Shown piece after piece: positions 363 to 36,033 of a stretch of DNA of 36,033 nt. The notes beneath the pieces were generated by a model. It was not told where the DNA came from. It saw only the letters and a list, made by a program, of their open reading frames with translations, and ran no database searches. The DNA is taken from positions 1-36,033 of the IMG/VR virus record IMGVR_UViG_3300045988_125363. One strand, given 5' to 3'. Position 1 is the first letter of the stretch; every line of letters begins with the position of its first letter. The DNA comes from a virus. The position numbers and the translations under genes are program-made.

Positions 363-1547
363 TCAGTCTTTTGACGACTTTTTGCAGACCTCGGTGTCTG
401 CTCTGTCTGCTCTTTTGCTCACATACTCATCCAACTGGGCAAAGTACCTTTCATCCTCCGACTCGCGCAGCTGCTGATACACCCGGCGGGTCGTTGTGAT
501 ATCCGCATGGCCCATGAGCTTCTGCGCGACCATATCCGGCACGCCTGCATAGAAAAGGTTAGAGGCGTAGAGGTGCCGGAACTGGTGGGCGGTGACAACT
601 GCCTTCCATTTGTAGTAGGTTCGCACCTGGTCTGGATGGCCTTTGACCTTGGCGTTGATCTCCAGCGGCGTGCACAGGCCCAAAGGACGGCAGTACATGG
701 CCCACTCCCAATCGTAACGCGACTGTGACAGCGGCTCTGCCTTGCCGGAGAGCACATACTCCCATGGCTTGTGGAGCCTTTTCCTTTGGCCCAGTGCGGG
801 CCGCAGAGGCGTCAAGATCGGCACATCTCGGTACGCCTTTTCTGACTTTAGCGTTTCCAGATAAGGGCGGTTGTGCTCCCACGGCATCGCCCGGCGCACG
901 TGGATCAGTCCGGCTTCGAGGTCTACGTCTTCCCAGCGGAGCCCGTTTGCTTCGCCTATGCGGAGGCCTGTATACTCAAAAAGCTGGGCCCAGAACCCGC
1001 ACCCGTCCGGGTGGGCGTTGATGATGTCACACTGCTCCTTGGTGGGCTCTTCCCGCTTGCCGCGCTTCATCCCGGCGGGCACCTCGGACAAAAGCACCGG
1101 GTTGCCTGTGCCGTGGAAGTTGGAGCACCAGTAGCGGAAAACGCACGACATCACACTGCGCGCGTTCGTGATGGTATGTAAGCTTTTACCGTCTACCTTC
1201 ATCTTTTCCCAGTAGCTGCTGATGCTCTGCGCGTCGATATCGGCCATGCGCAGATCACCAAAGCTTTCCAAAAACTGAGGAAGGTATTTGCGGTAGGAGC
1301 TTATTGTACCACGTTTGACGGGCTTTGTCGAGCCCGTAATGTAATTTTCGTAGGCCTCGGCCACCTCTCGGAACGTCGGCCCGGCGGCTTCCTGCTCATC
1401 CTGCCGGAGCATCTCATCCCGGGCGGCTTCATATTTTGCCGTTGCCTCTGTCACCGTGTACCCGAAAAAGTGCTTGGTGCTGCCGTCCGGCATCTTTCGC
1501 TTTATCTCATAGCGGCCATCTTCACGTTTTGTCTTTTTTCGTGGCAT
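363..1547 (-). CDS. int: Tyrosine recombinase / phage integrase (394 aa)
   Basis: ORF-track 363..1802 trimmed to ATG 1547 (MPRKKTKREDGRYEIK...) behind a GGGAGGGAG RBS. It has an arm-binding-type N-terminus and the motifs TGLRIGEANGLRWEDVD, AHQFRHLYAS and MGHADITTTRRVYQQL (R...HxxR...Y). Confidence 0.95.
   Translation of the reverse strand: MPRKKTKREDGRYEIKRKMPDGSTKHFFGYTVTEATAKYEAARDEMLRQDEQEAAGPTFREVAEAYENYITGSTKPVKRGTISSYRKYLPQFLESFGDLRMADIDAQSISSYWEKMKVDGKSLHTITNARSVMSCVFRYWCSNFHGTGNPVLLSEVPAGMKRGKREEPTKEQCDIINAHPDGCGFWAQLFEYTGLRIGEANGLRWEDVDLEAGLIHVRRAMPWEHNRPYLETLKSEKAYRDVPILTPLRPALGQRKRLHKPWEYVLSGKAEPLSQSRYDWEWAMYCRPLGLCTPLEINAKVKGHPDQVRTYYKWKAVVTAHQFRHLYASNLFYAGVPDMVAQKLMGHADITTTRRVYQQLRESEDERYFAQLDEYVSKRADRADTEVCKKSSKD
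372..394 (+). repeat. Direct repeat DR2 TGACGACTTTTTGCAGAC-C-TCGG (inside the 3' end of int)
   Basis: Seen directly; partner of 175..197, 197 bp away. The pair flanks the terminator and the tRNA-like fragment. Confidence 0.85.
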
Positions 1548-2148
1548 CGTCTGCTCCCTCCCTTGTGACTGAGTACGCTGTCTTGTCGGCCATAGCGGCG
1601 GCCTTGCCGCAGTTGTAAGCCTGCCGCAGGAGCGCCATGATGGGCTGCGGGGTAGCGTTGGGGTCTGAGTCGGCGCCCTTGGCCTGAGCCATCTCGTAGT
1701 CGTCGATGATGGCACCGCAGTGCGACACGCGAGCCGCCAGCGGGCAATGGAGGTTGGCCAGCATCTCGGTGAGAACAGCAAGGTGATCTGAGCCATGGTC
1801 ACCGTAGCGGAGATAGATCAGGGCATTGATCTCATACATACTCGCCTCATCCAGCGCCTCGTGGAGGATTTTCCGCTTTTCCGCGTCGCCCAGGTCGTCC
1901 TCCAGGTGCTCCAGCAGGCCGGGGTGGATACAGGCATCCACATACCGTGTAGCAGACACCCCGCAGCACATAAACCACTTTAGGATCATGGGGCTTGGCG
2001 GCATCTTTGCGCCCCTCTCCCACGCCGCAATGGTGGGGCGGCTCAAGCCCATCCGGCTGGCCAGCTTGTCCTGGCTTATCCCGGCATGAGCCCGTGCGCT
2101 TATCAACGCTTTTGATACTCGTATCGCGTATTCATCCGCCTTATTCAC
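1522..2148 (-). CDS. XRE-family HTH regulator with a ~140-aa C-terminal domain; candidate lysogeny repressor
   Basis: GTG start at 2148 with a GAGGTGA RBS. HTH segment GISQDKLASRMGLSRPTIAAWERG. Overlaps the int start by 26 nt and is divergent from the small rightward ORFs at 2268. Confidence 0.8.
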   Translation of the reverse strand: MNKADEYAIRVSKALISARAHAGISQDKLASRMGLSRPTIAAWERGAKMPPSPMILKWFMCCGVSATRYVDACIHPGLLEHLEDDLGDAEKRKILHEALDEASMYEINALIYLRYGDHGSDHLAVLTEMLANLHCPLAARVSHCGAIIDDYEMAQAKGADSDPNATPQPIMALLRQAYNCGKAAAMADKTAYSVTREGADDATKKDKT

Positions 2149-2647: not shown

Positions 2648-2668
2648 GTGTCCACTGTGGACACTTTT
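2648..2668 (-). repeat. 21-nt element AAAAGTGTCCACAGTGGACAC, copy 1 (17-bp perfect palindrome GTGTCCAC-N-GTGGACAC); terminator-like on the plus strand
   Basis: The plus strand reads gtgtccactgtggacacTTTT. The identical 21-mer occurs at 14245..14265 and 30459..30479. Confidence 0.9.
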
Positions 2669-3302
2669 ACATGTGGATGCTGTCATAAGTCAGCGTGTGC
2701 CCGTCCCAAATAAAATTCTCACCATTTCCCAGATACACCGGGAACTTCGTAAAGAAAACCGTTCCTTCCGAAAATTGCAGCGGGAGATTTGCAATCCTTG
2801 CATAATGCAGATTATAGAGCCTACCGTTTTGTGCTATCTGGCAGTATACAACCTCAGTGCATCTTATCTCCCCATAGTTGGGGTCATCCCACGCTGGTTG
2901 TTTAGGGACTTCGTTTGACACAGAAACATACTTTCCATCTATTTTGCGCACAGGCGAGTATTTCAGCGTATAGCCATCCCAGACATAATCCGTCCCGCTG
3001 GTTTTATCATCCGGGAACGAATCAAAGTAGACGTAGGTATTATCTGGATTGGCTGGCTTTTCAGGCCCGGCGGGTTTAATGCCTTTTTTCTCCACAAAAC
3101 TGTTGTCCTCAAATCGTCCGTCGTGGACGGTTCCATCCTCGGCAATTATGCAAACGTACTTTTTGCCCGGCACCGTGATGGAAGCATTTGGGCTTTGTAC
3201 TGAGGCCCCGCCGCCAGAGCAGCCCGTGAGTGAAACGGCCACCGCAAGCACCATAATGCACAAACCAGCAATCGCAATTTTTCCAGTTTTTACAAATTTC
3301 AT
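2667..3302 (-). CDS. Prophage lipoprotein, candidate superinfection-exclusion protein (211 aa)
   Basis: Signal peptide plus lipobox (MKFVKTGKIAIAGLCIMVLAVAVSLTGC). AGAGGA RBS. Two internal repeats end in DYVWDGYTLKY and NFIWDGHTLTY. Confidence 0.85.
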   Translation of the reverse strand: MKFVKTGKIAIAGLCIMVLAVAVSLTGCSGGGASVQSPNASITVPGKKYVCIIAEDGTVHDGRFEDNSFVEKKGIKPAGPEKPANPDNTYVYFDSFPDDKTSGTDYVWDGYTLKYSPVRKIDGKYVSVSNEVPKQPAWDDPNYGEIRCTEVVYCQIAQNGRLYNLHYARIANLPLQFSEGTVFFTKFPVYLGNGENFIWDGHTLTYDSIHM

Positions 3303-3511
3303 GTTTTTTCCTCTGAATGCTTGATTTTTCTCTATAATTGTTGTAATATCGAACCAGCAAATACAACCTAAAGGGGTGTTTTGAAATGACCGACAACGAA
3401 TTTTTGGAATACTTAAAATCTCACCCCGAACTGTGGGATGTTGTTATGAAAATTCTTCGGCCTTAGAGGCCCGCACTAAATCCGCCCGCCACGACAGACG
3501 GGCTCTTTTAT

Positions 3512-4804
3512 TTACACTTTGCTCCTTATCTGCTCTTTTAGCTTCAGCGATTCACGATACTGTTCCGCTGGAGCAAGCTCCACAAACTCCACCGAGCGAT
3601 CATAGTTTTCCTTCACGACTTTCTTTATTTCGTCCAGCGTGACGTTGAAGAACTCCCGACGCTGGTTAACAAAGTTCAGCTTACGGTCGGCGAAAGCGTT
3701 ATGCAATGCTGCTTCCAACCGAGGTGCATCATCCGAGAAGATCATAGCATGGACATCAAAGTTGAACGGAACGGACGCATCTCCAAGCTCATCCACGCGA
3801 TCCTGCGGGTCAAGGCGGCGAGTCATGCCGATTTTATACACGTTTTCGCCAAAAGCGCCAATATTGGAGATAACATAAACGTACCCTGCCCGCTGATTTG
3901 CTTCTCGATAGTCAACATCTTTGAACTCTTTGTCGATTCTATCCAGCTGTGCCTCAAGCTCTGCTTTCTTTTCCTCAATTGCCGTGCGATCGGTTTCAGA
4001 AGCAGTTTCAAGCTGGGCGATAATACGCTGTAATGCATTCTGATAATGCTGCTGCTCTTTTTCCAACTTTTTACGTTCTTCCTCAATCTCTTTAGCCAGT
4101 TTTGCTTCTTCCCGCATTCTAGCACGGGCTTCTTTCTGCTCCTCTTTTTCTTGCTGTTTTTTCTGAGCATATTCAAATGCAAGGTGCAGCTCTTCGATTT
4201 TGAGCTGATAATACTGCGGCACAATCCCGACACTCATGATTGCTCCAAGCTTTGAGATAGCATCGCGAGAAGAAGTAATCCGCTTTTCGCTGGCCGCAAT
4301 ATTATTATATTTGACGTGTTCTATTACATCATCGCATTCGGAGTTGAACGCCCGGAGAAGTAGTTTCTGCATATCCGCAACCATCTTGTTTCCTTTGGCC
4401 GCATTACCATTTACAGTCCAGCTGGAACTTCCAGTAACAGCGGTTTTGTTTTTTACCATATTCTTTTGCTTTGCACGAATCTCCAGCAGGTGGGCCTTAT
4501 ATTCGTCGGAGTTCATAAATGAATATCGCGGCGTATAGATTCCAAAACTCTGCATGAGGACGGTTTCTTCCGTTTCAACTATTTCGCTCTTGGTCTTCTG
4601 CAAGTCTGCAATAGCGTTGTTTAATTCGTCTTGCCGTTGCTTCAAATGTGTTTCAACCAACGATAATTCCGCTTTGCTCTCCTCGATTTCTTGATTGATT
4701 TTCTCTAATGTCCGGCTCTCCGAGGGCATAGAATCCCTTAACCGCTGCAATTCTTCATTCAGACGATCGATTTCTTCTTTTTCTTTTTTACCAAACAATG
4801 ACAT
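3512..4804 (-). CDS. DUF4041-like + T5orf172/Mug113 (GIY-YIG-like) domain protein, candidate anti-phage nuclease (430 aa)
   Basis: Coiled-coil N-terminus. Central FGIYTPRYSF...KLLLRAFNSECD...YYQLKIEELHLAFEY block. Charged coil. C-terminal GYVYVISN...VYKIGMTRRLDPQDRVDEL...LHNAFADRKLN...REFF. GGGAGGAA RBS. 35-40% GC in two hand-counted lines. Confidence 0.8.
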   Translation of the reverse strand: MSLFGKKEKEEIDRLNEELQRLRDSMPSESRTLEKINQEIEESKAELSLVETHLKQRQDELNNAIADLQKTKSEIVETEETVLMQSFGIYTPRYSFMNSDEYKAHLLEIRAKQKNMVKNKTAVTGSSSWTVNGNAAKGNKMVADMQKLLLRAFNSECDDVIEHVKYNNIAASEKRITSSRDAISKLGAIMSVGIVPQYYQLKIEELHLAFEYAQKKQQEKEEQKEARARMREEAKLAKEIEEERKKLEKEQQHYQNALQRIIAQLETASETDRTAIEEKKAELEAQLDRIDKEFKDVDYREANQRAGYVYVISNIGAFGENVYKIGMTRRLDPQDRVDELGDASVPFNFDVHAMIFSDDAPRLEAALHNAFADRKLNFVNQRREFFNVTLDEIKKVVKENYDRSVEFVELAPAEQYRESLKLKEQIRSKV

Positions 4805-4869
4805 ATTGCGATTCCTCCCGATTTTTTACATATTACATTGAATTTCTGAGCATTTGCCCTGTGTTGCTT

Positions 4870-5217
4870 CTACTTTTTTCCGTTCTCTAGTACAGCCAAA
4901 GCTGCCGCTCTAGCTGCGGCTCTGGCTTCTGGCGACGCTTCTCTATATGCATTCTCTACATCCGGCCACTCGTAACCGAGCTCACTTTTCAAAGTGGGCT
5001 CTTTTTTTGTGCCCATGAGCTCCTCAACGGGGATCCCGAGCACTTCTGAAATTTTTGCCCACCGGCGACGTGTGGGACTGGCTCTTCCTTTTAGCCAATC
5101 ACTCACATTACCGGTAGACGCACCGATTTTGTCCGCAAATTCTTTTTGAGACATGTCAAGCTTATCAAGCGTCTCAAAAAGCTTAGGACAACGGCATTCT
5201 TCTGGAATATTTGCCAT
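4870..5217 (-). CDS. XRE/Cro-C1-type HTH regulator (115 aa)
   Basis: MSQKEFADKIGASTGNVSDWLKGRASP HTH. AAGGTAAGGTGA RBS. Divergent from the 5218..5603 regulatory region. Confidence 0.85.
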   Translation of the reverse strand: MANIPEECRCPKLFETLDKLDMSQKEFADKIGASTGNVSDWLKGRASPTRRRWAKISEVLGIPVEELMGTKKEPTLKSELGYEWPDVENAYREASPEARAAARAAALAVLENGKK

Positions 5218-5274
5218 TTTTTCACCTTACCTTTTGTTCAAAATAACGGTTTTAGAGTTTTTCGTGTTTACTTA

Positions 5275-5303
5275 TTGAGTTTTCGAGATTTTCGAGTTAT
5301 AAT
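5275..5303 (+). promoter_or_regulatory. Sigma-70-type promoter candidate TTGAGT-17 nt-TATAAT with tandem TTTTCGAG repeats in the spacer
   Basis: TTGAGT at 5275..5280, TATAAT at 5298..5303. The spacer reads tTTTCGAGaTTTTCGAGt. A related TTTTCGTG lies upstream at 5259..5266. Confidence 0.5.
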
Positions 5304-5346
5304 AAAGTCGTGCTCAGGAAACCAGATGGCGAGTCTGGCCCGGGGT

Positions 5347-5368
5347 GCAAACTCAGGGTTTGCTTTTT
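5347..5368 (+). terminator. Weak terminator-like hairpin about 45 nt downstream of the 5275 promoter
   Basis: gcaaac-tcagg-gtttgc followed by TTTTT. It is preceded by a ccaga-N7-tctgg hairpin (5322..5338). Confidence 0.3.
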
Positions 5369-5488
5369 GTTAGTAACCTCCGCAAGTACTTCCAAAGTTC
5401 CCTGTTCAGAAAAACGGCCCACACCGCAGCAGGAGCTTGGGCCGGGCCTGTGGCAGTTCAGTTCCTTTCTTCTTCCACAGACCAAACG

Positions 5489-5564
5489 CATTGCCAAGTC
5501 TGACACGTTGTATTTTGATTTATCCACAATTTCATTTTACACCTGTTTCAACCGCTTGGCAATG
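5489..5564. repeat. 10-bp perfect inverted repeat CATTGCCAAG ... CTTGGCAATG with a 56-nt AT-rich spacer
   Basis: Arms at 5489..5498 and 5555..5564. The right arm contains TTGGCA upstream of the Cro-like gene. Confidence 0.8.
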
Positions 5565-5603
5565 TTTTTAACCCCTTAAAATGAAACATCTTGTAAAAAT
5601 GAG

Positions 5604-5804
5604 GTGATGAAAATGGCTGCTACGACTTGGACGCCGGAATGGAAGGCCGAGGTCGTCAAGCAAAAGACGCTGCGCAACTGGAATTACGCCCAGCTGGCCC
5701 GCGCGGCTGGCCTTGGCGTCGGCCAGGTGCAGAAGTATGTTGCAGGGAAATACACCTGCGACAACCCGAAAGAGCCCATCGAGCGGGCGCTGGGGATGAG
5801 GTGA
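5604..5804 (+). CDS. Cro-like small HTH protein
   Basis: WNYAQLARAAGLGVGQVQKYVAGK HTH. Given the GAGGTGA RBS at 5601..5607, the most likely start is ATG 5613 (MAATTWTPEWK...). Confidence 0.7.
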   Translation: MMKMAATTWTPEWKAEVVKQKTLRNWNYAQLARAAGLGVGQVQKYVAGKYTCDNPKEPIERALGMR

Positions 5805-5808
5805 GGAC

Positions 5809-5988
5809 ATGGCGGCTGGAAAGTTTATCTTGATCTGCATCATGTGCTTTGTCTCCGGCGGGTGCCTGTCCGTGCTCATCACGGTGTGCGCCTCCCGGCC
5901 CAGCCGCAAGATGCTGGCGGGCTGGTTCGCGTACTTTGCCATCTGCCTGAGCTTGGCATACATCATCGGAAAGGCGGTTTTGTTATGA
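5809..5988 (+). CDS. Small membrane protein (59 aa; below the ORF-track cutoff)
   Basis: GAGGTGAGGA RBS. MAAGKFILICIMCFVSGGCLSVLITVCA...FAYFAICLSLAYIIG gives two hydrophobic helices. ATGA overlap with the next gene. Confidence 0.55.
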   Translation: MAAGKFILICIMCFVSGGCLSVLITVCASRPSRKMLAGWFAYFAICLSLAYIIGKAVLL

Positions 5989-6203
5989 GCGGTACTGCAT
6001 TTATCATTGCCGACATTATGGTCTGGACGGGCACCGACCCGTGGCAGGCCCACTGCATCGAGACGATGCTGCTGGCATTCCTCCTCGCGCCGATCGTCGT
6101 GGGCGCTCCGATGCTGCTGGCAAAGTACGACGCCTGGAAGCGGGACGACAACGCCCGCATCCGCGCCGCAAAGCATCGGCGCATGGAAAGGACGGCGCGG
6201 TGA
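5985..6203 (+). CDS. Small membrane protein (72 aa)
   Basis: ORF-track 5844..6203 trimmed to ATG 5985 (MSGTAFIIADIMVWTG...LLAFLLAPIVVGAPMLL). Start overlaps the upstream stop. Confidence 0.55.
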   Translation: MSGTAFIIADIMVWTGTDPWQAHCIETMLLAFLLAPIVVGAPMLLAKYDAWKRDDNARIRAAKHRRMERTAR

Positions 6204-6499
6204 TGGGGCCAAGCTATTATCGCGATAAGCTTTGCGAGCGCTGCGGGGCGCAGATGGTCCATGTTTTCCACACCGCCCGCTACTGCCCGAACTGCCGGAA
6301 AGCGGTAGACCGGGAGAATAACCGCAGGAAGCACCGCGAGGCCAGACTGCGCAAGGAAAAAGAAAAGCCTATGCCCACGGGCGACAGCCTCCACGACGTA
6401 GTGGCCCGGGCCAAAGCGGCGGGCCGCTCGTATGGGTGGCAGGTCTGGTTTGAGTTATGGCAAAAGGAGTTGGTGAGACGTGGCAAGAAAATTGCGTAA
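6203..6499 (+). CDS. Zinc-ribbon protein (98 aa)
   Basis: ORF-track 6041..6499 trimmed to ATG 6203 (overlaps stop TGA 6201..6203). CERCG...CPNC pair and a basic tail. Confidence 0.6.
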   Translation: MGPSYYRDKLCERCGAQMVHVFHTARYCPNCRKAVDRENNRRKHREARLRKEKEKPMPTGDSLHDVVARAKAAGRSYGWQVWFELWQKELVRRGKKIA

Positions 6500-9264: not shown

Positions 9265-10200
9265 ATGGCGGAAAAGAAAAAACGATGTCAATACCTTGTC
9301 GTCTTCGATTGGATGTATGATAATTTTGGCTTTAACGTGTCTGAGGCAAACGCGCTGGCTGTTGTCTATGGCTTTTGTCAGGATGGAAAGAGCTGGTATC
9401 AAGGCGGCTCCACCTACCTTGCCGAGCGGCTTCACATCTCTCAGAAATCAGCCAAAAATTACCTTGCAAATTTTGTCAAAATTGGCATTCTCAAAAAGGG
9501 CACGCGAATGGTCGGCAAGGTGGCCTACAACATCTACCAGACCGTGCCGGATATCGAAAATCTGGTGCTGACAGACGAAGAAGACCCGGGAAAAATTTTC
9601 CCTAGTGAAAAAATTTCCCCGGTGAAAAATTTTCCCTCAGACCCGGAAAAAATTTTCCCTCAGACCCGGGTAAATTTTTCCCACAAGAAAGAAATAGAGA
9701 AAGAAATAGAGAAATCTATCTATCAGCGCAAAGCGCCGAAACAGGATGGATGGATGGAATCTAACCCGGACAGGAACGAGGTCGAAGAGACCTTCCGGGA
9801 GCAGTTGCAACTCGACGATCTGGCCGGGCGGTATGACCCGGCGGCGCTGGAAGAACTGCTTGCCATCATTGTCGGGATGTACTGCTGCCAGGACAAAATC
9901 CAGTACATCGGCAAGACGCCTCAGACCACAGCAAGCATCTGCAAGCTGCTGGACAAGCTGACCGGGCGGCACGTTGAATACATCATGGACAACCTGGCCC
10001 AGACCACAACGCCCATCAAAAACATCCGGGCCTATCTGCAAACCACGATCCTGCGGGCGGCCACGACGCTGGAATTTTACGAGATGACCAAGACCTCGGG
10101 GCTCTGTGCCCAGCAATCCCAGCGCGAGGCTCTCCCCAGCATTGAAATTGGCGCTGCGGCAATGTCCCGGCGGCTGCGGAAAGGGGGTGGCAGCACGTGA
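9265..10200 (+). CDS. Replication initiator / replisome-organiser-like protein with an N-terminal wHTH
   Basis: AAGGGGG RBS. N-terminal LAERLHISQKSAKNYLANFVKIGIL. The gene contains the iteron cluster at 9588..9712. Confidence 0.6.
   Translation: MAEKKKRCQYLVVFDWMYDNFGFNVSEANALAVVYGFCQDGKSWYQGGSTYLAERLHISQKSAKNYLANFVKIGILKKGTRMVGKVAYNIYQTVPDIENLVLTDEEDPGKIFPSEKISPVKNFPSDPEKIFPQTRVNFSHKKEIEKEIEKSIYQRKAPKQDGWMESNPDRNEVEETFREQLQLDDLAGRYDPAALEELLAIIVGMYCCQDKIQYIGKTPQTTASICKLLDKLTGRHVEYIMDNLAQTTTPIKNIRAYLQTTILRAATTLEFYEMTKTSGLCAQQSQREALPSIEIGAAAMSRRLRKGGGST
9588..9712 (+). repeat. Iteron cluster plus AT-rich 12-bp tandem repeat; candidate replication origin inside the initiator gene
   Basis: Five copies of G(G/T)GAAAAATTTTCCC-like units start at 9588, 9605, 9621, 9644 and 9668, two of them extended to ...TTTTCCCTCAGACCCGG. 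Then gaaagaaataga x2.3 at 9687..9718. Confidence 0.8.
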
Positions 10201-14244: not shown

Positions 14245-14275
14245 AAAAGTGTCCACAGTGGACACTTTTTCTTTT
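14245..14275. terminator. 21-nt element copy 2 in a terminator context (AAAA-GTGTCCACAGTGGACAC-TTTTTCTTTTT)
   Basis: 17-bp palindrome at 14249..14265 flanked by an A4 run and a T-run. The realistic hairpin is GTGTCC-ACAGT-GGACAC, extended by A:T pairs. Confidence 0.6.
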
Positions 14276-30363: not shown

Positions 30364-31167
30364 ATGAATGCATTTTTCGAGTTTATCTCCAAGCTGCTGG
30401 CGGCCCTCTCCCACGCTGCCGGAGACAAGGCAGAGGAGCCGGACGCCCCCGCTCCTGAAAAAGTGTCCACAGTGGACACCGTGCCCGGCTGGACGGGTGA
30501 GCCTCCCTACCGCTATCTCGACGTGAGCCGCTATCAGGGCAAAATCACCCTCGACGGCTGGCGCAAGGTCAAAGCGGCTGGCTACAAGGGGGCCATGCTC
30601 AAGACGGTATCCACCAACCGCAAGCTTTCCAAGCGGGCAGACGGCCTGTACATCGACCCCACCTTTGAGACCAACTACCGCAACGCCCAGGCTGCCGGGC
30701 TGGACGTGGGCGTCTATTACTACACCTACGCCACCAGCGAGGCTATGGCCGATGCAGAGCTTGCCCTTGTGCGGAAAGCGGTACGCGGAAAAGAGCTCAC
30801 CATGCCCCTCGCGGTGGACGTGGAGGAAAACAGCATTAAGCAGCTGTCCACCCTCGACCTCACAAACCTTACCGCCTACGCGCTGGAACAGGTGGAGAAA
30901 ATGGGCTTTTACGCCCAGCTGTACACCTACACCCACTACTCCAACACGGAGCTGGACATGGGCCGCCTTGCAAACCGCTGGGACGTCTGGCTTGCTGACT
31001 ACACGGGCAAAACTCCCGCCGTCGGCTACCACTACAACGCCCACCAGCACACCAGCAAGGGCCGCGTGCCTGGCATCTCCGGCAACGTTGACCTCAACGT
31101 GACCACCGTCAACTACCCGAAAATCATCCGCAAGAAGGGTCTGACCCGTCTTCGGGAGGGCAAATGA
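30364..31167 (+). CDS. Endolysin, GH25 muramidase with a ~45-aa N-terminal extension
   Basis: YLDVSRYQGKI...KAAGYKGAMLK...DPTFETNYRNAQAAGLDVGVYYYTYA...AVDVEE GH25 motifs. Confidence 0.9.
   Translation: MNAFFEFISKLLAALSHAAGDKAEEPDAPAPEKVSTVDTVPGWTGEPPYRYLDVSRYQGKITLDGWRKVKAAGYKGAMLKTVSTNRKLSKRADGLYIDPTFETNYRNAQAAGLDVGVYYYTYATSEAMADAELALVRKAVRGKELTMPLAVDVEENSIKQLSTLDLTNLTAYALEQVEKMGFYAQLYTYTHYSNTELDMGRLANRWDVWLADYTGKTPAVGYHYNAHQHTSKGRVPGISGNVDLNVTTVNYPKIIRKKGLTRLREGK
30459..30479 (+). repeat. 21-nt element AAAAGTGTCCACAGTGGACAC, copy 3 (inside the endolysin N-terminal extension)
   Basis: Seen directly. Encodes ...EKVSTVDT... Confidence 0.9.
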
Positions 31168-32625: not shown

Positions 32626-32649
32626 AATGGTTACCTCCATGTGTTTGTA

Positions 32650-32729
32650 TGGTGTCTTTCACTGTCTCTATTATACGCTCATTGAGCGTATAAGTCAAGG
32701 ATTTTACAAAAATTTTATGCTCAATGAAC
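32650..32729 (-). promoter_or_regulatory. Promoter/operator module A: TTGACT-17 nt-TATAAT with palindrome GCTCA-T-TGAGC in the spacer and a second half-degenerate copy 42 bp upstream
   Basis: Plus-strand coordinates: -10 at 32670..32675, -35 at 32693..32698, O1 at 32677..32687, O2 at 32719..32729, 5'UTR motif GTGAAAGACACC at 32651..32662. 69/80 positions are identical to module B. Confidence 0.75.
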
Positions 32730-33435: not shown

Positions 33436-33455
33436 TTTCGTTTCCTCCATTTGCG

Positions 33456-33535
33456 TGGTGTCTTTCACTGTCTATATTATACGCTCATTGAGCATAAAAG
33501 TCAAGACTTTTTGCAAAATTTTGTGTTCAATGAGC
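33456..33535 (-). promoter_or_regulatory. Promoter/operator module B (same architecture as module A)
   Basis: -10 at 33476..33481, -35 at 33499..33504 (TTGACT-17-TATAAT on the minus strand), O1 GCTCATTGAGC at 33483..33493, O2 GTTCAATGAGC at 33525..33535. Confidence 0.75.
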
Positions 33536-35608: not shown

Positions 35609-36033
35609 ATGCGCGAATTTGAGAATCTGCGCCAGCAGATGCTGGAGGAGCTCAAAAAAATCGGAGCGAAAGGTGAGCTCTGCCACCGCGATCTGCGCGA
35701 TGCACTCGACCTCATCAACAGCCTGAACGGCTTAAAGAAACTCAACCCGCACGGCGAAGAGCCGGAACAAGCAGGCGCCGGATCTGAGCATCTGACCATG
35801 GACCAGGCTAAAAAGTGGGTAGGCGCAATGCAAAACGCCGACGGTACCACCGGGCCGCACTGGAGCTATGAGACTGCTTTTCAGCTCATGAGCTCCCGCA
35901 AGATCACCTGCCACTCCACCGATTTTTGGGTCACACTCTGCATGATGTACAGCGATTACTGCGCCGTGGCCAAAGAGTACGGGGCCGACACCCCCGCCTT
36001 TTATGCTGATATGGCAGCAGCCTTCCTGCACGA
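35609..36033 (+). CDS. 5' part of the junction-spanning hypothetical gene (continues at 1..177)
   Basis: ATG 35609 lies 4 nt after the previous stop. It is not in the ORF track because it has no stop inside the window. MREFENLRQQMLEELKK...HLTMDQAKKWVGAMQNADGTTGPHWSYETAFQLM... Confidence 0.7.
   Translation, partial: MREFENLRQQMLEELKKIGAKGELCHRDLRDALDLINSLNGLKKLNPHGEEPEQAGAGSEHLTMDQAKKWVGAMQNADGTTGPHWSYETAFQLMSSRKITCHSTDFWVTLCMMYSDYCAVAKEYGADTPAFYADMAAAFLH
35915..36033. repeat. Terminal direct repeat copy 2 (119 bp)
   Basis: Identical to 1..119. Confidence 0.95.

Follow-up and report, generated by a model that had tools for sequence, protein, structure and literature searches.

A SNIPE-family nuclease without a transmembrane helix in an exchangeable slot of the lysogeny module of a temperate phage from the human gut

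The stretch of DNA considered here, called the window in what follows, is IMG/VR record IMGVR_UViG_3300045988_125363 at its full length (positions 1 to 36,033), and it is the genome of a temperate phage from the human gut. Since the two terminal 119-nt segments (1-119 and 35915-36033) are identical, it represents a circularly closed, or terminally redundant, assembly of ~35.9 kb (about 35,914 bp); a 933-aa open reading frame (ORF) of tape-measure size is the sole feature from which we infer a siphovirus-like, long-tailed gene set. Our subject is the leftward part of the lysogeny module, where three minus-strand genes encode a lipoprotein (2667-3302, 211 aa), a nuclease of the SNIPE/PD-lambda-1 family (3512-4804, 430 aa) and a helix-turn-helix (HTH) protein (4870-5217, 115 aa), hereafter HTH115. 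An earlier description, the sequence-only reading, had placed the three genes at these same coordinates and had regarded them as a single accessory island that is not needed for the phage life cycle. The features of the locus are the following, where TM stands for transmembrane, RBS for ribosome-binding site, and L009 and L006 are two close relatives of the phage.

1522..2148, minus strand: 208-aa HTH protein (HTH208), with an HTH_3 match at E 1.8e-09
2648..2664, no strand assigned: 17-nt perfect palindrome GTGTCCACTGTGGACAC with flanking T runs (repeat count, terminator scan, hairpin fold)
2667..3302, minus strand: 211-aa lipoprotein with a signal peptide, a lipobox and two beta-rich modules (ORF, AF2 model, family alignment)
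3303..3438, minus strand: region upstream of the lipoprotein gene, kept whatever cassette adjoins it (homology to L009 and L006)
3439..4871, minus strand: swappable single-gene cassette made of the SNIPE gene, its RBS and a 3' hairpin (blastn breakpoints)
3512..4804, minus strand: 430-aa SNIPE/PD-lambda-1 family nuclease without a TM helix (PADLOC, PHROG, hydropathy)
3608..3886, minus strand: GIY-YIG (T5orf172/MUG113) nuclease domain, aa 307-399 (Pfam and motifs)
4199..4366, minus strand: DUF4041 core (Pfam PF13250, now named SNIPE), aa 147-202 (Pfam)
4535..4804, minus strand: N-terminal region of the nuclease, aa 1-90, MSLFG[KR]KEKEE followed by a variable coiled coil (alignment, AF2)
4870..5217, minus strand: 115-aa XRE-type HTH protein (HTH115), probable CI-like repressor and first gene of the leftward lysogeny operon (HTH_3, PHROG)
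5218..5603, no strand assigned: divergent switch region between HTH115 and the Cro-like gene (promoter scan, repeats)
5604..5804, plus strand: 66-aa Cro-like HTH protein, first gene of the rightward early operon (weak HTH_3 match, 0.0049)

By its profile matches, the 430-aa gene belongs to the SNIPE/PD-lambda-1 family. The PADLOC PD-Lambda-1 model PDLC03976 is matched at E 6.9e-163, with aa 9-427 of the protein lying on positions 60-477 of the 491-position profile, and the second PADLOC model PDLC03977 (5e-152) and the PHROG family phrog_1847 (6.5e-157) are hit at comparable strength. The DUF4041 profile is complete (1-56/56; E 5.5e-23, with a score of 81 bits where the cut-off is 27), and the C-terminal domain matches MUG113 (E 3.4e-20) as well as T5orf172 (E 4e-19). 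In the AF2 model, helices at aa 3-25 and 29-86 are followed by a helical DUF4041 core, one very extended helical segment (196-305) and, at 308-409, an alpha/beta domain. The architecture put forward in the sequence-only reading (a coiled coil, a DUF4041-like core and a T5orf172/Mug113 domain) is borne out both by these searches, in which every one of the expected models was matched, and by the long predicted helices at aa 3-86 and 196-305. All the GIY-YIG motifs are preserved (G307-Y-V-Y, Y323-K-I-G, R329/R330, E364 encoded at 3713-3715, and N387) and invariant over 15 aligned homologues, save for N387, which is kept in at least 90%; the same motifs are found in a TM-bearing homologue from E. 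coli, with which the window protein shares 42% identity over aa 148-425. Going by the profile offset only (position ~414), E364 appears to match the catalytic E414 of E. coli SNIPE. Comparison with the PDB, by Foldseek and by sequence searches, was uninformative. While the precomputed Pfam label of homologues already reads 'SNIPE', their public annotations are 'helicase', 'Zn-ribbon protein' or 'hypothetical', and the matches reported here give such genes a confident functional label.

PD-lambda-1 came out of a functional selection carried out in E. coli (Vassallo et al. 2022, PMC9519451) and has since been renamed SNIPE (Saxton et al. 2026, Nature, PMC13190303). The E. coli protein cuts phage DNA during injection, for which both E414 of the GIY-YIG domain and DUF4041 are required, DUF4041 binding DNA and probably also the tape measure protein, and an induced resident prophage is left unharmed (PMC13190303). 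The tie between DUF4041 plus T5orf172 proteins and defence against incoming DNA, which the sequence-only reading had put forward, is thus documented. The window protein shares with E. coli SNIPE a near full-length profile match, the order coiled coil, DUF4041, coiled coil, GIY-YIG, the catalytic Glu together with its accompanying motifs, and the nature of a single-gene system that is often prophage-borne. It differs at the N-terminus, where E. coli SNIPE has a periplasmic tail and a TM helix, and the profile match of the window protein starts at position 60. ManYZ, the partner of E. coli SNIPE, is irrelevant here because the host is a Gram-positive-type gut Clostridiales bacterium. Closer in that respect is the Firmicute-borne PD-Lambda-1(EU01) of S. 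thermophilus, which gives more than 3 logs of protection against Brussowvirus, Vansinderenvirus and Piorkowskivirus (PMC12322248); the comparison is by family name, and its gene is chromosomal, whereas the gene in the window lies in a prophage repressor operon. Since two S. thermophilus PD-Lambda-1 alleles that are 98.5% identical differ completely in activity (PMC12322248), activity of a SNIPE protein is not to be assumed from homology.

One departure from the E. coli prototype is the missing membrane anchor. The N-terminal TM helix by which the E. coli-type protein is recognized is absent, the peak 19-residue Kyte-Doolittle hydropathy being 0.83, against 2.99 in the TM segment of the E. coli homologue, and the helices of the AF2 model are soluble ones. 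Recovery of a TM helix by extending the ORF at its N-terminus was considered and rejected, extension being impossible because of an upstream in-frame stop and a strong GGGAGG RBS 8 nt before the ATG. Among SNIPE homologues, 59% contain a single TM helix and 7% a pair, while 34% lack one altogether (PMC13190303), so that the helix marks the E. coli prototype and not the whole family. Where E. coli SNIPE has its TM/adaptor region, the window protein has aa 1-90, of which the first 11 residues (4772-4804), MSLFG[KR]KEKEE, are invariant in the TM-less clade, and variation in the protein is greatest in the coiled coil behind them. This N-terminal sequence may serve for targeting or for interaction, and it bears a loose resemblance to what we take to be the M-G-[IL]-F start of the PspA/Vipp1 amphipathic helices.

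The SNIPE gene moves as a unit of its own. Relative to L009, which carries a cassette encoding a HIRAN protein, homology breaks at 3438 and 4872, and relative to L006, with a DEDDh-BRCT cassette, at 3402; from these blastn breakpoints, the exchange unit is the SNIPE gene with its RBS and its 3' hairpin (3440-3515, dG -24.9, z -2.4). The flanks of the cassette-exchanged relatives are 87-88% identical at the nucleotide level, and the swaps leave in place HTH115, the lipoprotein gene and the 136 nt that precede it. The notion of one three-gene island therefore has to be given up, given that close relatives replace SNIPE (3439-4871) alone while HTH115 and the lipoprotein stay. In L009 the replacing gene (5626-6384) encodes a HIRAN-domain protein of 252 aa that has two TM helices, and in L006-L008 it encodes a soluble 306-aa protein with RNase_T (DEDDh) and BRCT domains (6921-7841 in L006), which matches the PADLOC candidate PDC-S48 at 3.5e-35. 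The cargo starts 65 nt from the HTH115 end in the window, at +14 nt in L009 and at -14 nt in L006, and the scan gave no minus-strand terminator-like site between HTH115 and SNIPE. The 430-aa protein itself is found in identical form, with its neighbours unchanged, on eight human-gut metagenome contigs.

A wider set of relatives shares the backbone alone. The arrangement of int, HTH208 and orf72, then the slot, HTH115 and the Cro-like gene is common to ~35 IMG/VR contigs, whose integrase is about 65% identical to that of the window, and to a prophage within one Clostridiales metagenome-assembled genome, the sole related prophage recovered in the host search. SNIPE occupies the slot in none of these relatives, and in 30 of them other cargo separates HTH115 from the palindrome: a small protein anchored at its C-terminus, or assorted secreted proteins and lipoproteins, one of which shares a G.(D/E)Y.WDG motif with the lipoprotein of the window. 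Ten loci (cluster c3; e.g. L030, 5423-6808) carry a 408-461-aa DEDDh exonuclease whose C-terminus is BRCT-like by eye, with three predicted TM helices in the 461-aa representative. The slot is a prophage defence hotspot, with conserved flanks and unrelated, defence-like cargo among relatives, and the claim of an accessory slot in the lysogeny module that ends at the palindrome holds in this form. Variable defence genes between conserved lysogeny genes are also the hallmark of lambda cI-rexA-rexB and of the P2 hotspots (old, tin, fun), where, as here, the cargo is likely to share a transcript with the repressor and is exchanged among phages that are otherwise alike; those systems belong to another phage lineage, and the slot of this gut Clostridiales phage differs in being bounded by an invariant 17-nt palindrome. 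The membrane-anchored DNA-acting proteins that take the place of SNIPE are candidates for new entry-site defences, and the neighbouring cassettes, together with the lipoprotein family, provide inexpensive candidates when new functions in exclusion or defence are sought in gut Clostridia. As a separate observation, a 106-120-aa protein (cluster c0) is encoded directly after the HTH115 homologue in 25 relatives (L012-L045) and is missing from the window; its 120-aa representative has one C-terminal TM helix, and it may be another exclusion-type factor.

Outside this backbone, SNIPE is a large family (>8000 clusters at E <= 1e-30), and TM-less forms of 429-435 aa with 83-85% identity to the window protein are very common in gut metagenomes. 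Such homologues occur in three other prophage lineages, 18 nt or one gene after a CI-like repressor with HTH_3 and Peptidase_S24 domains; they are followed by variable cargo (RhuM, DUF8426, a toxin-antitoxin-like pair) and then by the integrase, and lipoprotein or membrane-protein neighbours of SNIPE are lacking in all three lineages. The DNA shared with the window is restricted to the coding sequence plus 27 nt upstream (74.6% nucleotide identity), and the SNIPE gene of the other lineages likewise lies below its flanks in GC content. The TM-less clade is thus abundant in human-gut prophages, usually downstream of the immunity repressor. A P2-like prophage of E. coli MS 57-2 (L010; NZ_CP146660.1, 3063405-3065081) carries CI, a 558-aa TM-bearing DUF4041 protein and int in succession, and its CI to SNIPE order is the same as in the gut phages.

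The claim of an XRE HTH protein next to the nuclease gene is upheld by a Pfam HTH_3 match at E 7.6e-12, and PHROG repressor families are matched as well. HTH115 is divergent from the Cro-like gene that heads the early genes and is present whatever the cargo; promoter-like sites lie on both strands of the switch region, and the Cro-like gene is kept with o59 and the early genes in at least 30 relatives. Among relatives, HTH115 alleles range from 32% to 71% identity while the integrase stays at 59-67% (one partial locus at 78%), a spread against a steady integrase that is as expected of an immunity gene, and the 5' part of HTH115 has been replaced together with the adjoining switch region in close relatives; cargo genes, moreover, follow closely on its 3' end. 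HTH115 is therefore likely to be the CI-like immunity repressor of the phage rather than an accessory gene. As the most likely repressor it would be needed for lysogeny, and on this gene the earlier view of something dispensable to the phage life cycle appears mistaken.

The lipoprotein carries the lipobox L25-T26-G27-C28 (Cys28 codon at 3219-3221), with MKFVKTGKIAIAGLCIMVLAVAVSLTG running up to the Cys; the LTGC motif of the sequence-only reading is indeed there, and it is invariant in six of six family members. The AF2 model (pLDDT 74.9, 80-95 in the folded part) has two beta-rich modules, which end in F..FP...G.DY.WDG..L.Y. No match was found in Pfam (nothing at E <= 10 for the mature part and nothing at 0.1 for the whole protein), PADLOC, PHROG or NCBIfam, Foldseek gave no counterpart in the PDB (best E 0.4), and the BFVD matches were to uncharacterised phage proteins only (best E 8.8e-4). 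The family is tiny, with 5 clusters in 5.8e9 proteins, 11 in a profile search of 1.84e9 representatives, and no match in searches of IMG/VR and GTDB genomes; all full-length members that were inspected (P0001-P0005, P0126-P0130) are lipoproteins, which as a rule have a Ser-rich stalk and carry two or three modules. The region upstream of the gene is homologous as far as 3438 in L009 and 3402 in L006 and probably carries the lipoprotein's own promoter, although the promoter scan of 3303-3438 returned nothing above thresholds. The lysogeny module is the classical site of exclusion genes, as exemplified by Ltp of S. thermophilus TP-J34 and Sie2009 of lactococcal P335 phages, which are lipid-anchored or membrane proteins encoded in the lysogeny module of temperate Gram-positive phages, as is the protein studied here. 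A closer likeness to Ltp was considered and rejected: Ltp consists of helical repeats, whereas the window lipoprotein is predicted to fold into beta-rich tandem modules, and there is neither a sequence match nor a database match to support kinship. Of the earlier label 'Sie-type lipoprotein', a lipoprotein in the lysogeny module remains, the resemblance to Ltp falls away, and a part in superinfection exclusion is a reasonable guess from position.

The reading that we favour, with a probability of about 0.72, is that of a prophage SNIPE cassette carried in the repressor operon and cutting the DNA of superinfecting phages. A leftward operon would start from 5218-5603 with HTH115 and continue immediately with the single-gene cassette, and, by analogy with E. 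coli SNIPE, the nuclease of a lysogen would be made together with the repressor. It would then be recruited to the injection site of a superinfecting long-tailed phage, DUF4041 contacting both DNA and the tape measure protein and the GIY-YIG domain, with E364 as the presumed catalytic residue, cutting the DNA upon entry, while the resident prophage and the chromosome would be spared. Without a TM helix, the protein might reach the membrane or the injection site with the help of its conserved N-terminus and its coiled coil, or DUF4041 might suffice for this. The lipoprotein would be a separate, backbone-encoded surface protein that acts independently of SNIPE, and it is a better candidate than SNIPE for classical exclusion on the outer side of the membrane. 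So understood, the gene is a well-supported but ordinary defence gene of a characterised family, and the result extends current understanding and does not change it.

A number of observations speak against this reading. In the switch region, two copies of the operator-like 20-nt repeat GTTTTMGAGWTTTTCGWGTT, at 5249 and 5279, overlap the rightward promoter-like site at 5275-5303, a point in favour of HTH115, but their assignment as operators is weak. Pfam finds no Peptidase_S24 domain in the 115 aa of HTH115; many phage repressors of Gram-positive hosts are without this domain, so that HTH115 is still compatible with a repressor role. The genome also encodes a further HTH regulator, HTH208. As to the nuclease, the AF2 model has a pLDDT of 72.6 overall and of 40-70 in the nuclease domain, and its N-terminus contains no DivIVA-, PH- or T3SS-ATPase-like domain, only generic coiled-coil noise being obtained with Pfam. 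A TM-less construct of E. coli SNIPE is toxic and attacks the host chromosome (PMC13190303). How an anchor-less SNIPE spares the host chromosome is a question left by the E. coli work, and the present locus is useful for asking it.

Other explanations differ mainly in what they make of the missing anchor and of the neighbouring genes. The lipoprotein and the nuclease could form one two-component entry block, in which the lipoprotein senses or holds the phage tail and recruits or activates the TM-less nuclease. In favour, the genes lie side by side in the same orientation, both in the window and in L001-L005, more distant relatives pair secreted proteins or lipoproteins with a nuclease in the same slot (clusters c6/c8 with c3), and the window SNIPE has no membrane anchor of its own. 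Against this, the lipoprotein is kept at 78-93% identity beside two unrelated cassettes, the 83-85% identical SNIPE homologues of the three other lineages do without it or any TM neighbour, and many relatives have surface proteins without any nuclease; moreover, a 209-nt gap with the hairpin and the conserved upstream region separates the two genes. As the mature lipoprotein is lipid-anchored and extracytoplasmic, with no cytoplasmic part, it could not directly contact or tether a cytoplasmic nuclease, and on both co-occurrence and membrane topology we reject it as an anchor or partner for SNIPE. Since each gene is found without the other, the trio is not an obligate system, and with no sign of pairing, we consider the layered joint entry block of the sequence-only reading very unlikely. 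Still less credible to us is that the 430-aa gene is a selfish element of the GIY-YIG homing-endonuclease type, or a decayed, inactive copy. Low GC content, single-gene mobility and a GIY-YIG fold that is also found in homing endonucleases would fit the former, and the lost TM helix could be read as lost function, but homing endonucleases have no DUF4041, the match to the defence family is full-length, the catalytic motifs are all kept (N387 in at least 90%), and there is strong conservation of the N-terminus in a clade abundant in gut metagenomes. In addition, the gene occupies a slot that otherwise holds unrelated cargo and interrupts no conserved target gene.

Two further alternatives concern the flanking genes. 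As the sequence-only reading pointed out, there are two divergent HTH regions (2149-2268 and 5218-5603), and HTH208 could be the true immunity repressor, in which case HTH115 would regulate the cargo locally or control the nuclease in the manner of an antitoxin. HTH208 is the larger protein (208 aa, with a C-terminal domain) and faces the divergent, AT-rich 2149-2268 (GC 0.275), and HTH115 weakly matches defence-associated HTH models and HigA-type antitoxins. Yet HTH208 shares 26 nt with the start of the integrase gene and has diverged in parallel with the integrase (50-57% identity where int has 59-67%), and it probably belongs to the integration module, whereas HTH115 faces the Cro-like and replication genes, is present also in relatives without the nuclease, and has as its positional equivalent in other lineages a bona fide CI with HTH and S24 domains; exchanging the roles of the two proteins therefore seems unlikely. 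More weight, though short of an even chance, should be given to the lipoprotein being a surface factor of lysogenic conversion with no part in exclusion, serving adhesion, nutrient binding or interaction with the immune system in the gut. It resembles neither Ltp nor any defence model, its Ser-rich stalk with two or three tandem beta modules is reminiscent of surface adhesins, and the same slot of relatives holds varied secreted proteins. On the other hand, the family is restricted to a tiny set of phage-derived sequences, the gene lies at the classical position for exclusion, and its modules diversify fast, with 60-80% identity in the C-terminal module between otherwise near-identical phages, which fits an arms race.

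The far end of the slot is marked by the palindrome. It begins at 2648, the very point at which the island had been said to start, and overlaps the lipoprotein stop codon. Three copies occur in the window (2648-2664, 14249-14265 and 30463-30479), against 0.01 expected by chance, and 42 of the 52 loci compared, including relatives with unrelated cargo, have an exact copy at the end of the slot, next to where orf72 ends. Cargo sequences diverge right up to it, and the form GTGTCCACWGTGGACAC is perfectly kept despite the diverged flanks, the central base alone flipping between A and T. The palindrome looks like the terminator of the plus-strand orf38-orf72 operon, and the cargo slot has its fixed end there. 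Of the further copies, the one at 14249 (copy 2) falls between genes, but because copy 3 (30463) sits inside the ORF of a GH25 endolysin (30364-31167) the element may be more than a terminator, and its perfect conservation over diverged flanks leaves room for a role in protein binding or as an exchange boundary. An ambitious extension, which we regard as improbable, would see in the whole slot a dedicated site for DNA-entry defence of this lineage of gut Clostridiales phages, combining stalked surface lipoproteins of a family not described before with interchangeable, membrane-acting DNA enzymes. If that were true, the DEDDh-BRCT proteins (soluble or with three TM helices) and the HIRAN protein with two TM helices would be new SNIPE-like effectors at the injection site, MSLFG[KR]KEKEE would be a new route by which TM-less SNIPE is targeted there, and the palindrome would be a functional boundary (a protein-binding or exchange site) and not a plain terminator.

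The base composition of the locus sets it apart from the rest of the genome. GC content is 0.475 in the lipoprotein gene, 0.448 in the SNIPE gene, 0.489 in the HTH115 gene and 0.422 in the intergenic region 5218-5603, compared with 0.573 in the genome remainder; GC3 is 0.43-0.51 in all three genes and 0.64-0.82 in backbone genes, and the lowest-GC window of 1293 nt in the whole genome falls in the SNIPE gene. The hand counts of 21, 24 and 41 GC in 60 that had been given for single lines were exact on recount. A compositionally foreign central gene is thus correct as to its low GC but not as to its confinement, the low-GC tract taking in all of 2667-5603.

Some minor features of the genome were noted in addition. 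By the 3' end of the integrase gene, at ~300-345, lies GGGAGGGGATTTGAACCCCCTCA, the minus strand of which resembles the T-arm and acceptor 3' end of a tRNA and suggests an attP overlapping a tRNA gene. Neither ARAGORN nor Rfam made a call on this stretch, which fits a mere fragment; the attachment site yielded no tRNA call either in the window or in relatives, and Rfam found no RNA family in the window, two sub-threshold matches looking like chance. Between the two lysogeny sub-modules, two small high-GC plus-strand genes (38 and 72 aa; 2269-2606) are kept alongside the integrase module in all relatives; they gave no family matches, and the pair may include the excisionase. Inside the start of a 311-aa ORF (9265-10200), the 22-nt unit AGACCCGGGAAAAATTTTCCCT occurs four times at 9582-9683, with a spacing of 23-34 nt. 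The equivalent gene in L001 is called DUF6017 and has ParA/ParB-like genes downstream, and the four repeats look like iterons or a centromere-like site. Finally, an 84-nt direct repeat with 86% identity is present in the low-GC right end of the genome, its copies (32644-32727 and 33450-33533) lying 806 nt apart.

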